Virus genome (UHGV): UHGV-0167633
Source: a virus
Reading direction: 5' to 3' (one strand)
Length of the DNA stretch: 64,000 nt
The translations under genes were made by a program, and so were the position numbers. Every line of letters begins with the position of its first letter. Positions within the stretch are counted from its first letter, which is position 1. Shown in pieces: positions 59,998 through 64,000 of this stretch. Below the pieces are notes generated by a model that saw only the letters and a program-made list of their open reading frames with translations, did not search any database and was not told where the DNA came from.

Positions 59998-60273
59998 ATG
60001 TCGAAAATTAACTTAAGAACCGAATCTGCGGTGTTCAAGAATCCTACGTTTAACGTACCCAAACAAACGCTTGATGAACTTGTGCCGATTGATAGCAGGT
60101 TTGTTATTCCTGCGGAACTGGTCGAGAACTGCAAAGAGAAGCAAAAATCGTTAAAGGAAATATCGCCTTCTGAAATCCTCTCCCGCAGTGATGTAAGTAA
60201 GGAGGAGGTTTTAAGGGCGATATCTGCATCTACTGCTACCACGCTACGTAGATTGTATGGTTCTGCGGAGTAG
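59998..60273 (+). CDS. hypothetical protein downstream of doc
   Basis: 91-aa ORF. Confidence 0.35.
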   Translation: MSKINLRTESAVFKNPTFNVPKQTLDELVPIDSRFVIPAELVENCKEKQKSLKEISPSEILSRSDVSKEEVLRAISASTATTLRRLYGSAE

Positions 60274-60484: not shown

Positions 60485-61528
60485 GTGAAAGCCGTAATTA
60501 CTCCCTTTGTACAAAAAGAGCTTGGCGTCGCCACATTCAAAGTGGATCAGGAAGTCAGAAAGCTGGTGGAGGCTGGCCGTAAATTTATTATGGAGCCGGT
60601 GCCGCGTGAGTTAATCGAGCACATGGACGACGGCCTCGTTGTTTCCGAGCAAACTATGGCAACAAATGAGGCGTTGCAGCCGTTTTTTAACAGCGATGAA
60701 CTGTTTCGCCGTATTGGTGGAATTGACGCGCTGGTGGCGTGGTTGCGCAGGAAAGAGGGGAAATGCCAGGCCGCAGATCGTAGCTGGTGTGACAACCATA
60801 TTGTCCACGCAGAACGAGACAATAGCGCGGTGTTGTTGTGCTGGCATCACGATAACCATTACCGGATGCGTAGTTTTAATGAGCTGAAAGAAACGCTGCA
60901 TAATAATCGCGTTAACTGGATACTGGATGTCGCCCGTCAGGAAATGGGGCTTTCAGATGGCCATGATTTAAGTATTCAGGAACTGTGCTGGTGGGCTTTC
61001 ATGCGCGACATGATGCACCTGATGCCGGAAGAAGTCTGCCGTATATCAATAAATAAGATTAAGGCTGCAACGCAGGATAGCGGACCTATGAAAGAGGCGG
61101 ATATTCGCCCGTATGACGATCGCGCTACAGCATATGTTCAGATGATGGAAGAACGCGCCGCGCCGATGCGTGCAAAAGTATGCCCTGTGGATGTTGACTC
61201 CGACCCTGGCATGGCGCATTTCAAAATACCAAAACTGCAATCGCTAAAATTACCTGAGTACATGGACTTTGTTGCTTCCCGTCCATGCTGTGGGTGTGGA
61301 GCTGCGGGAGCTGGCGCTCACATTACGCCTTATATCGTTCGTCATAGTCGATTATGCGCGCATGACATTTACGCAATTCCTCTGTGCCAGTCATGCCAGC
61401 GTGATATTGAGCGTGACCGCGATAATTGGGAGAAGACGCACGGTAGGCTGGCGATGCATCAACGATTGTTCTTTGATTACGCGCTTGGAGTCGGCGCTAT
61501 CACAAGTCACTCGTCGAACGTTAGATAA
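60485..61528 (+). CDS. Cys-rich hypothetical protein
   Basis: 347-aa ORF; C-terminal CCGCG...C..C clusters. Confidence 0.4.
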
Positions 61529-61544
61529 AATTGCTCTAATGTAT
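61528..61544 (+). promoter_or_regulatory. C1-operator-like site
   Basis: ATTGCTCTAATGTATTG (13/17) at stop of preceding gene. Confidence 0.35.
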
Positions 61545-61616
61545 TGCTATTTCTTTAATCGATGGTATTATATTCCGCGTTGATTAGTTGACATGGGCTA
61601 ATCAGTAGGTGACAGG

Positions 61617-62069
61617 ATGTTACTTAACTGGCAGGGACGCCACTTCATGGAAATAAATCACTCACGAATAACATCGTACGAGATTGCGGATTACATGATC
61701 CGCACTAAATCTCTTCTATCCGCGAAAGAACTCGCAGCAATTCTTGAAAAGGAATACCCGCATCTGGATGTCGATAAGCGCGATGTTTATCTGCGCTTAA
61801 AGGCTATTGCTGTGTCTAAGTATTCGTCTGTTTTGATTGATGACAGTACACGCCCACGTAGATTTCAGATCCACTCTCTGAATCCTGAATTCTTTCGCCG
61901 TAGCCGCGCTCCGCGCCGGTTTGATGAAAAACTCCAGAACGAACTCTATATGACGCAGGACGAAAAGGAACGCCGGGAGCACCAGCCTTGGGTAATGGCG
62001 CGTCAACTTTTCAATAAGGTGGCCCGTCAGCACCGTCATTACGGTAATGCCACATCCGCACGTATGTGA
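61617..62069 (+). CDS. small regulatory protein at the position of the P1 late-promoter activator
   Basis: 150-aa basic ORF between doc-downstream genes and pacA; positional inference only. Confidence 0.35.
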   Translation: MLLNWQGRHFMEINHSRITSYEIADYMIRTKSLLSAKELAAILEKEYPHLDVDKRDVYLRLKAIAVSKYSSVLIDDSTRPRRFQIHSLNPEFFRRSRAPRRFDEKLQNELYMTQDEKERREHQPWVMARQLFNKVARQHRHYGNATSARM

Positions 62070-63410
62070 CTGCTCCCCGCCCGGTTGGGCGAGGCTTCCC
62101 ACATCTCAGGCCGCAACCGTCTGTACGACGGATTTACGCTGGCCTCCATGGGCAGAGACGACGAGTCCCGCCGCCTTTAGTTCCAGTATCCCTTTTTGCC
62201 GGATGTTGAGAGCCGCATTGATATCGCGGTCATGCTCTGCTTCACATTCAGGGCATCGCCAGATGCGTTTATGAAGCGGCATTTCCGGCATTTTGTAACC
62301 ACAACAATGGCACGTTTTCGAACTGGCAAACCACTGGTCGAGTTTTACCAGGTGAACGCCTTTTTCCGCTGCCTTGTACTCCAGCTTTGTGATGAAGCTA
62401 TGCCAGCCTGCATCACCTATTGCTCTTGCCAGATTGTGGTTTTTCATCATGTTGGCTGTTTTCAGCGTCTCGACAATTACCGCTTGGTTTTCGTCAACAA
62501 TTGTACGAGAAAGTTTATGTTGAAAATCAGCACGGGCATTCGCTACCCGTTCGTGTATGGCCGCAAGACGGATTCTGGCCTTTTTACGATTCGCGCTTCC
62601 CTTTTGCTTGCGGGATAGCGCTTTTTGTTTGCGTCGCAGATTACGGCTGGCATTGATGAGATGGCGGGGATTCGCAATTTTTGCCCGGTCAGACCTGATG
62701 GCATAGTGCTCAAGTCCCATATCCACACCAGTAATCTTTTCTTCCTCCAGATACGCAGGTTTCGCTGGTGTGGGAATACCGTCTTCACAAAGGATGGATG
62801 CGTAGTATTTCCCGGTGGCACTGCGAGTGATTGTTATGCTCGTCACTTTTCCCGTCATTACACGGTGTATACGCGCTTCTATCGGTGCCAGCTTAGGAAT
62901 TTTGATGGCATTCTCCAGTACTTTAATCCCGACACAATGGTAGCTCGATTGCTTCCCATGTTTACGTTTAAACGTCGGGAACCGGGCTTTCAGCTTCGGA
63001 TTAAAAAAGTTGGAAAACGCCACATCAAGATTAATCACCGCCTGTTGCAATGCCATTGAATCAAATTCTTTAAGCCAGGCATACTTACGGGACTTCTTCG
63101 CCACAGACAACAACGGTTTTAAATCTTTACGCGGACTTAAATTCACTCCGTGTCGCTGGTAAGCGTGTTTTTTGATGTGAAGAGCTTTGTTGTACGCAAA
63201 ACGCACGGCGCCGAACTGGGCGTTGAGATACTCAGCCTGTTTAGTGGTTGGATAGATGCGTACTTTTGTCGCTCTTAACATAGTCACCGCTCATTGATAC
63301 AGGTTTTTATGCTAACACCGTAATGATTTTTTTTTAAAGCCCTGTGGGCTTTCCCGCCTTTCCTCCCCGCCCGCATTGGGCGAGGGTTCTCGGCGGTTGT
63401 TTGCTGATTG
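62065..63410 (-). mobile_element. IS200/IS605-family element carrying tnpB only
   Basis: tnpB flanked by related imperfect-palindrome ends CTCCCCGCCCGGTTGGGCGAGGCTTCCC (62073-62100) and CTCCCCGCCCGCATTGGGCGAGGGTTCT (63363-63390); boundaries approximate; no tnpA in window. Confidence 0.65.
62106..63287 (-). CDS. tnpB: TnpB (RuvC-like RNA-guided nuclease, OMEGA type)
   Basis: 393-aa ORF; N-terminal MLRATKVRIYPT, RuvC-like GVDMGL, C-terminal zinc finger CHCCG...RCPECEAEHDRDINAALNI. Confidence 0.85.
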   Translation of the reverse strand: MTMLRATKVRIYPTTKQAEYLNAQFGAVRFAYNKALHIKKHAYQRHGVNLSPRKDLKPLLSVAKKSRKYAWLKEFDSMALQQAVINLDVAFSNFFNPKLKARFPTFKRKHGKQSSYHCVGIKVLENAIKIPKLAPIEARIHRVMTGKVTSITITRSATGKYYASILCEDGIPTPAKPAYLEEEKITGVDMGLEHYAIRSDRAKIANPRHLINASRNLRRKQKALSRKQKGSANRKKARIRLAAIHERVANARADFQHKLSRTIVDENQAVIVETLKTANMMKNHNLARAIGDAGWHSFITKLEYKAAEKGVHLVKLDQWFASSKTCHCCGYKMPEMPLHKRIWRCPECEAEHDRDINAALNIRQKGILELKAAGLVVSAHGGQRKSVVQTVAA

Positions 63411-63488
63411 CTTGCCCGTTCCGGGCCTTTTGACATGTGACTTTCGTTACCCTCGCGTCAAAAAGAGTTTTTACGAAAGGAAGCATAA

Positions 63489-64000
63489 GTGACCTGGGAC
63501 GATCACAAGAAGAATTTTGCTCGCCTGGCGCGAGATGGTGGTTACACCATCGCACAGTATGCCGCCGAGTTTAATCTTAACCCTAATACCGCACGTCGTT
63601 ATCTCCGTGCCTTCAAAGAAGACACCAGGACTGCGGACAGCCGCAAGCCAAATAAGCCAGTCAGGAAGCCACTAAAAAGCATGATCATTGATCACTCTAA
63701 TGATCAACATGCAGGTGATCATATTGCGGCTGAAATAGCGGAAAAACAGAGAGTTAATGCCGTTGTCAGTGCCGCAGTCGAGAATGCGAAGCGCCAAAAT
63801 AAGCGCATAAATGATCGTTCGGATGATCATGACGTGATCAACCGCGCCCACCGGACCTTACGTGATCGCCTGGAACGCGACACCCTGGATGATGATGGTG
63901 AACGCTTTGAATTCGAAGCTGGCGATTACCTGATAGATAACGTTGAAGCGCGGAAGGCCGCGCGCGCTATGTTGCGTCGGTCCGGGGCCGATGTTCTGGA
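63489..64000 (+). CDS. pacA: terminase small subunit PacA (5' part; continues beyond window)
   Basis: GTG start at 63489; translation [28 protein letters not shown]... recognised as P1 PacA; contains the pac site. Confidence 0.8.
63682..63840 (+). promoter_or_regulatory. pac packaging site (4 + 3 GATC-containing hexamers)
   Basis: TGATCA at 63682, 63689, 63701, 63716; then TGATCG 63812, TGATCA 63824, 63835; arrangement as described for P1 pac inside pacA. Confidence 0.75.

Follow-up and report, generated by a model that had tools for sequence, protein, structure and literature searches.

Most tnpB genes occur in transposase-less elements (PMC10055086), and the guides of the IS605 family sit directly 3' of the right end (PMC8612924, PMC10055086). 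Homing, or gene drive, has been demonstrated experimentally for other TnpBs (PMC10055086; 10.1101/2025.02.20.638934), and a gene drive acting on plasmids has been reported (bioRxiv 10.1101/2025.02.20.638934). On the transposase side, the pairing rule of IS608 from Helicobacter pylori links guide tetranucleotides with the cleavage sites (PMC3201880), and ISEc46, an IS200/IS605 member of E. coli, measures 1763 bp with a tnpA divergent from tnpB. Here, we analysed a stretch of 64,000 nucleotides of the virus genome UHGV-0167633 (the window), in which a tnpB gene is inserted at the end of lpa, the late promoter activator gene, upstream of the terminase gene pacA of a P1-like phage-plasmid. The best explanation overall, which we consider highly probable, is a non-autonomous tnpB-only IS200/IS605 element that arose when an ISEc46-like parent lost tnpA by deletion and that would be capable of homing. 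As far as sequence can establish it, this element combines a complete IS608-type cis apparatus with a conserved omega-RNA and an intact TnpB that is under purifying selection.

The ends of the element and its ISEc46-like parent

A first-pass annotation of the window had described a tnpB-only IS200/IS605 element at 62065-63410, with a complete TnpB open reading frame (ORF), related palindromes near both ends and no tnpA. This reading was upheld on each of these points, and the limits were refined to 62066-63403 (minus strand, 1338 bp). For the right end, 80 loci encoding TnpB relatives (59-81% amino-acid identity, Gammaproteobacteria) were fetched, of which 73 sequences were usable. The right terminus is an invariant ...GGGGAGCAGTCAC in 73/73 relatives, followed immediately by unrelated sequence, and corresponds to base 62066 of the window. 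The left end was placed by the relatives together with the empty site of P1 and P7, two genomes that lack an extra block of about 1.34 kb and whose sequences are 98.5-99.1% identical to its flanks; the comparison with P1-like genomes proposed in the first-pass annotation gave a clean insertion. The empty site in P1, P7 and four element-free plasmids reads GCACGTAT followed directly by CTGATTGATTGCTTGCC, and the occupied site of the window reads GCACGTAT, then the element (GTGACTGC...GTTGTTTG), then CTGATTGCTTGCC; from the comparison of both sites, the element is therefore 62066-63403. In the tnpB orientation, it is preceded by TCAG, its first bases are CAAACAACC... and its last bases ...GTCAC. 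The junctions are identical in 5 other plasmids.

The element presents no terminal inverted repeats and, as in the IS200/IS605 family, subterminal imperfect palindromes at both ends, all the features given here being on the minus strand. The right-end hairpin (62075-62094; CCCCGCCC-GGTT-GGGCGAGG), which is also the last stem of the omega-RNA, shows covariation at 3/6 pairs, and the left-end hairpin (63365-63385; CCCCGCCC-GCATT-GGGCGAGG) is identical to that of ISEc46. The 8-mer GGGCGAGG has two occurrences in the 64-kb window, both in these hairpins. As in IS608, where the rule is TT:AA, A:A and a complementary last base, four-base guides lie 5' of the hairpin feet (PMC3201880). In tnpB sense, these DNA guides are GAAG at the right end (62095-62098), which is invariant in the alignment of relatives, and GAAC at the left end (63386-63389). 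By the IS608 rule, GAAG pairs with the transposon-encoded terminal motif TCAC (62066-62069), which terminates 9 nt downstream of the right hairpin, compared with 10 nt for the terminal tetranucleotide of IS608 (PMC3201880). On the left side, the transposon-adjacent motif TCAG (63404-63407), which belongs to the target DNA outside the element and is present in the P1/P7 empty site, is 18 nt from the hairpin foot, compared with 19 nt between the cleavage site and the left hairpin of IS608 (PMC3201880). The element is unlike IS608 in its motifs, which are TTAC and TCAA in the latter, and in being devoid of TnpA.

The pairing of TCAC with GAAG was observed at every right end. At the left end, the guide co-varies with the target motif, which is TTAG or TCAG across 33 relatives: TTAG is combined with AAAC in 29 of them, and TCAG with GAAC in the window element, in a copy on an IncI1 plasmid and in the copy of p88_1577-1, as well as in phage RCS47 at the p88_1577-1 site. 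Since the TC:GA and TT:AA correspondence is internally consistent, TCAG is the transposase-side target of this subgroup. For a full ISEc46 copy inserted in yfaX, the joined flanks restore the intact gene with 100% identity over 174 nt in 3915 genomes, and ISEc46 was therefore inserted exactly after TTAG, with no duplication. In the same way, the window element lies 3' of a fixed short motif without target-site duplication, with the caveat that one TGAT unit is missing.

By tblastn with the TnpA of ISEc46 as query, no tnpA was detected in the element or in the 64-kb window (best E = 1.9), and the element is therefore non-autonomous. Starting from the right end, it is homologous to ISEc46 through the whole of tnpB and slightly beyond the start codon, as far as 63318; tnpA is then skipped, and the homology is taken up again at the left end of ISEc46, which forms the remaining left end of the element (63319-63403, minus strand). 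The break falls between two AACAC(C) microhomologies, and tnpA appears to have been lost from an ISEc46-like parent by deletion between them (63310-63352 region). A former tnpA terminator-like hairpin, AAAGCCC-TGT-GGGCTTT, survives at 63336-63352 and is preceded by a T9 run, the length of which differs between the two haplotypes of the element described below. The tnpA-less state was found in about 20 of the 33 relatives with a recognisable left end.

With ISEc46, the window element shares the terminus GGGGAGCAGTCAC, the left-end hairpin sequence and homologous tnpB and omega-RNA regions. The differences are the deleted tnpA, the guide (GAAC vs AAAC) and the motif (TCAG vs TTAG). Compared with chromosomal copies annotated as ISEc46, the DNA identity is 78.8-79.0%, and 64-65 of 389 TnpB residues differ (about 84% amino-acid identity). 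As these values are below the usual limits (at least 95% for protein or at least 90% for DNA), the window element is not the same insertion sequence as ISEc46.

TnpB, the omega-RNA and its predicted guide

The coding sequence of tnpB (62106-63281, minus strand) gives a protein of 391 residues from ATG 63281, the RefSeq start, with the stop codon at 62106-62108; from an in-frame GTG at 63287, the ORF extends to 393 residues (62106-63287). Its matches to the Pfam families HTH_OrfB_IS605, OrfB_IS605 and Cas12f1-like_TNB (PF12323, PF01385, PF07282) are all far above threshold, and the NCBIfam model guided_TnpB (NF040570) gives 347 bits for a cut-off of 100. A full-length alignment with the solved structures of ISDra2 TnpB from Deinococcus radiodurans (PDB 8H1J/8EXA) was obtained, with an E-value of 8e-79. 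In this alignment, for which the ISDra2 residue numbering was taken from PMC10097598, the same catalytic and zinc residues are present, i.e. the RuvC triad D187/E271/D353 and the cysteines C324/C327/C343/C346. The motif is different, TTGAT in ISDra2 and TCAG/TTAG here, and so are the motif-reading residues: K76, F77, Y52, T123 and N124 of ISDra2 correspond here to S, M/I, P, H and C, and only Q80 is retained. Throughout the group, a serine replaces the lysine with which ISDra2 reads motif position -3, and we conjecture that this position is perhaps read loosely.

The TnpB ORF is intact in 6/6 copies examined, with 0-2 amino-acid differences. The ratio of non-synonymous to synonymous divergence (dN/dS) of tnpB is 0.07-0.16 in comparison with the relatives and 0.13-0.16 with the tnpB-only relatives of 88-90% identity. 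As these last also lack tnpA, tnpB has therefore been kept by selection while tnpA-less.

The omega-RNA had been anticipated in the first-pass annotation around the 3' end of tnpB and the right end, at about 62060-62250, with a covariance-model search as a check. A scan of 61000-64000 against Rfam 15 (E ≤ 1) gave no family, and the RNA was therefore tested by covariation. RNAalifold, applied to the alignment of the 73 sequences, led to a scaffold of 111 nt (62066-62176, minus strand) that falls within the anticipated interval. It is located mostly inside the tnpB frame, overlapping the last ~70 nt of the gene, and continues to the right end. Five helices between 62176 and 62075 contain 32 pairs, 18 of which show compensatory double changes. 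Standard pairs are present in 98% of the cells, compared with 33-52% when the partners are slid by 1-3 columns, and changes on both sides occur in 300 cells compared with a shuffle mean of 80; 0/500 shuffles matched the observed values. On the minus strand, helix 1 joins 62176-62170 with 62162-62156, helix 2 joins 62152-62148 with 62102-62098, helix 3 joins 62144-62138 with 62114-62109, helix 4 joins 62131-62127 with 62121-62117, and helix 5, the right-end hairpin, joins 62094-62087 with 62082-62075. All five are intact in the window element. Over the final 26 codons of tnpB (62106-62183), the synonymous divergence (dS) is 0.2-0.34 versus 1.8-2.3 elsewhere, i.e. about 6-9-fold lower, a clear case of RNA structure constraining a coding sequence.

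The layout of this RNA is close to that of ISDra2, whose scaffold has 116 nt: the loop of the first stem can pair with positions -5 to -3, and a terminal hairpin precedes the 16-nt guide (PMC10097598). The possible pseudoknot would be formed here by GAC 62167-62165, in the loop of stem 1, and GUC 62070-62068, at positions -5 to -3 (minus strand). Both sides are invariant, and the pseudoknot is therefore only compatible with the ISDra2 architecture (PMC10097598). A long-range helix given by RNAalifold, between columns 29-31 and 201-203, was dropped in favour of this pseudoknot; both are invariant and neither is proven. In its structure and its position, the transcript is thus predicted to be a conserved structured RNA of the OMEGA type.

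The predicted guide is the 16-nt sequence ATACGTGCGGATGTGG (62050-62065, minus strand), directly 3' of the right end and antisense to the last 16 nt of lpa. This sequence has a single occurrence in the window and is identical to the P1/P7 empty-site sequence beside TCAG.

Carriers, proposed homing and rival explanations

The same insertion, with identical junctions, was found in 7 PLSDB plasmids (4 of E. albertii and 3 of E. coli) and in one IMG/VR contig. The carrier plasmids come from Poland, Switzerland and Korea, from birds, poultry and humans, and RefSeq labels the gene in them 'RNA-guided endonuclease TnpB family protein'. The element was not found in phage records, at the sensitivity that these searches had. 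The empty site is present in 590 PLSDB plasmids at a coverage of at least 80%, and an exact 88-nt match exists in 467. That TnpA had inserted the element at this position independently on different backbones was an alternative, but it was rejected because all copies share the junctions and a linked single TGAT unit; the insertion is passed on within a lineage of P1/P7-like plasmids found in E. albertii and E. coli.

ISEc46-type elements with the same termini, TCAG and GAAC, and likewise without tnpA, occur in the P1-like genomes RCS47 (FO818745.1, 56145-57472) and p88_1577-1. Unlike the window element, they are located downstream of repL, with a different guide and a tnpB only ~79% identical. 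The junctions of these two elements are identical to each other, and the one of RCS47 has been annotated since its deposition. In addition, copies of ~90% identity to the window element, also tnpA-less, are flanked by ardA and psiA in the leading region of IncI1 plasmids, as in pMTY17668_IncI1-I (1501-2842), and truncated remnants adjoin shufflon recombinase genes in other plasmids.

The element exists as two haplotypes, 6 positions apart. Copies of one haplotype have 0 differences over their 1337-1338 bp, although 1-2.5% of the positions differ in the 1.6 kb that flank the element on either side. The first of these flank differences is 156-345 bp away on the left and 126-636 bp away on the right; the wider gene content also varies among carriers. 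An identical element on diverged flanks means that element-bearing and element-free P1-like genomes have repeatedly recombined near the element, which has thereby moved between backbones. Judged from these alignments, the mosaic of the backbones fits TnpB-stimulated homing, without proving it.

In the mechanism that we propose, the TnpA of an ISEc46-type element, present in some host, would have acted in trans and inserted the element at lpa, 3' of TCAG, by a single-strand 'peel and paste' reaction. As its guide, the omega-RNA would carry the 16 nt that follow the right end and are antisense to the lpa terminus, and TnpB loaded with this RNA would cleave the element-free site, i.e. TCAG followed by ATACGTGCGGATGTGG. 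Such RNA-guided, motif-dependent double-strand cleavage is predicted from the behaviour of the family (PMC8612924, PMC10055086). Repair from an element-bearing copy would then restore or spread the element, in a homing or gene-drive role, and we propose that an occupied site is spared because the target there adjoins TCAC and no longer TCAG. The predicted logic, with the flank after the right end as guide, is that of the homing of Geobacillus ISGst and of multicopy or conjugative plasmid systems (PMC10055086; 10.1101/2025.02.20.638934). Unlike in these systems, the replicon is a unit-copy phage-plasmid, and the support is population-genetic and ambiguous.

Several observations weigh against a homing-capable element. 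Ordinary homologous recombination explains the mosaic equally well: P1-like phage-plasmids recombine often (PMC10879196), and the ~150-600 bp beside the site are conserved in all P1-like plasmids, so that the ends of the recombination tracts cannot be placed. The element is rare, being present in 7 of ~600 P1-like plasmids, and any drive is therefore weak or recent. Considering the protein, no TnpB residue, including those at the ISDra2 motif-contact positions, is specific to TCAG-type in comparison with TTAG-type elements; acceptance of TCAG by TnpB is therefore assumed, and a co-adaptation of TnpB to TCAG was put aside as unsupported. Moreover, TCAG differs from the protective terminal TCAC by a single base. 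The scan of 61900-63600 gave no sigma-70-like promoter, and its terminator-like matches were not usefully above shuffles. The lack of Rfam homology of the omega-RNA and the lack of a source of TnpA in the window count on the same side.

A last point of this kind is a difference of 4 bp between occupied and empty sites beyond the insertion itself: beside the motif, a single TGAT unit is present wherever the element is, and two or more units in the empty sites. The units belong to a (TGAT)n microsatellite located directly after the lpa stop codon (window 63405-63408), with 2 units in P1, P7 and four other element-free plasmids. One plasmid (CP057803.1, 301-404) has six units, which reveals a microsatellite, and the TGAT difference was therefore taken as copy-number variation. 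The array abuts TCAG, and the number of units alters the sequence just 5' of the TnpB motif.

The rival that survives best makes of the element an inert passenger: a stranded, non-mobile relic, with TnpB and omega-RNA unexpressed or unable to use TCAG, left by one old insertion that was followed by ordinary recombination of the flanks with other P1-like plasmids. Such a relic would accommodate the missing tnpA, the scan without a promoter-like site, the switch from TTAG to TCAG without a TnpB residue change, the presence in only 7 of ~600 plasmids and the strong recombination of P1-like plasmids (PMC10879196), and identical junctions including the single TGAT unit are what one ancestral event should give. 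It agrees poorly with a TnpB intact in the six copies examined, with a dN/dS of 0.13-0.16 in comparison with the 88-90%-identical tnpB-only relatives, and with five omega-RNA helices that are all intact. We regard this explanation as unlikely, although it has some weight.

A co-opted weapon, by which the carrier prophage would cut incoming or co-resident element-free genomes of the P1 family and gain an advantage in RNA-guided superinfection exclusion or incompatibility that goes further than keeping the element, is clearly less probable still. The guide and the motif are exact in 467 plasmids, as well as in P1 and P7, the target is within the essential lpa-pacA region, and conjugative plasmids have been reported to gain a comparable 'anti-self' advantage (10.1101/2025.02.20.638934). 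Nevertheless, such cutting is a by-product expected of any plasmid TnpB element, no sequence sign of adaptation to this role was seen, the element is rare, and P1 already has immunity of the C1/Sim/Sup type.

Finally, a regulatory exaptation, as a nuclease-dead TldR-like repressor or as an omega-RNA/tnpB transcript antisense to lpa, would suit the convergence of tnpB with lpa and a guide antisense to the last 16 nt of lpa, but it is hardly credible for an element that keeps the RuvC triad, the zinc finger and full transposon ends, when in TldRs the RuvC residues and the ends are lost, and whose relatives are at unrelated sites with unrelated guides.

The lpa-pacA locus and the meaning of the element

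In the local map taken from the P7 and P1 annotations, pdcB is followed by the C1 operator Op(lpa) with the promoter Plpa, by lpa, by the late promoter LPpac and by pacA with the pac site. The lpa gene (61617-62069, plus strand; Pfam BPP1_LPA, E = 3e-57) is convergent with tnpB, and its last 4 bases are derived from the element. The insertion point is inside the last sense codon, ATC TGA becoming AT/G TGA: the plus strand of the terminal TCAC of the right end provides G+TGA, i.e. the last base of Met150 and the stop codon of lpa. I150M is the sole difference between this Lpa and that of P1/P7. The placement between lpa and pacA made in the first-pass annotation holds in so far as the insertion is clean with regard to P1/P7, but it is within the last codon of lpa and not simply intergenic.

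As that annotation also claimed, pacA lies downstream of the element, with a GTG start at 63489; the 5' part with the pac site region occupies 63489-64000 (plus strand), and the gene exceeds the window. LPpac (63435-63453, plus strand; -22 box 63435-63443, -10 box 63448-63453) was mapped from the P7 and P1 annotations. From 63405 to the start of pacA, LPpac included, the sequence is unchanged compared with P1/P7. According to the P7 record, Plpa also serves pacA and pacB. As LPpac is on the pacA side and unchanged, the separation of the terminase gene from its upstream signals, which had been stated in general, applies only to the read-through of the C1-controlled Plpa/Op(lpa). From the sequence, lpa remains functional and pacA retains its own late promoter, so that the insertion is tolerated.

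The backbone of the window is itself mosaic. Upstream of pdcB, the segment 59666-60466 has no relationship to pEA50_2, a plasmid that is near-identical elsewhere, and is similar to p2RM9976 of E. albertii, and an ORF of 91 residues (59998-60273) occupies the place of pdcA in P1-type plasmids. In an element-free P1-like plasmid (CP057799.1, 10238-11466), a copy of IS2 splits pacB into two annotated 'terminase' pieces, so that the packaging operon of P1-like plasmids is indeed subject to insertions.

The element is a well-formed but ordinary tnpB-only member of the IS200/IS605 family, whose gene already carries the TnpB label in RefSeq. Its interest is modest and comes from a guide that exactly matches hundreds of natural P1-like targets. 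The target motif and the left-end guide have changed together without a change in TnpB, which raises the question of how the transposase-side and nuclease-side motifs stay matched.

It is possible, although we put it forward only tentatively, that the element is a natural RNA-guided gene drive and an exclusion device, by which the carrier prophage would cut P1/P7-like genomes, whether superinfecting or co-resident, at an unoccupied lpa-pacA site. If so, the cut incoming genome would be destroyed or converted by recombination, which would explain an identical element on backbones that differ by 1-2.5% around it, and the change of the left guide from AAAC to GAAC, with the retargeting from TTAG to TCAG, would be a natural 'resetting the site'. 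P1 is one of the most tractable phages, and P1, P7 and hundreds of plasmids from the field have the predicted target in unaltered form, which makes of this locus a natural test bed. As lpa, LPpac and pacA are left intact, drive through a phage-plasmid population, or protection of the carrier, would be testable with few strains.

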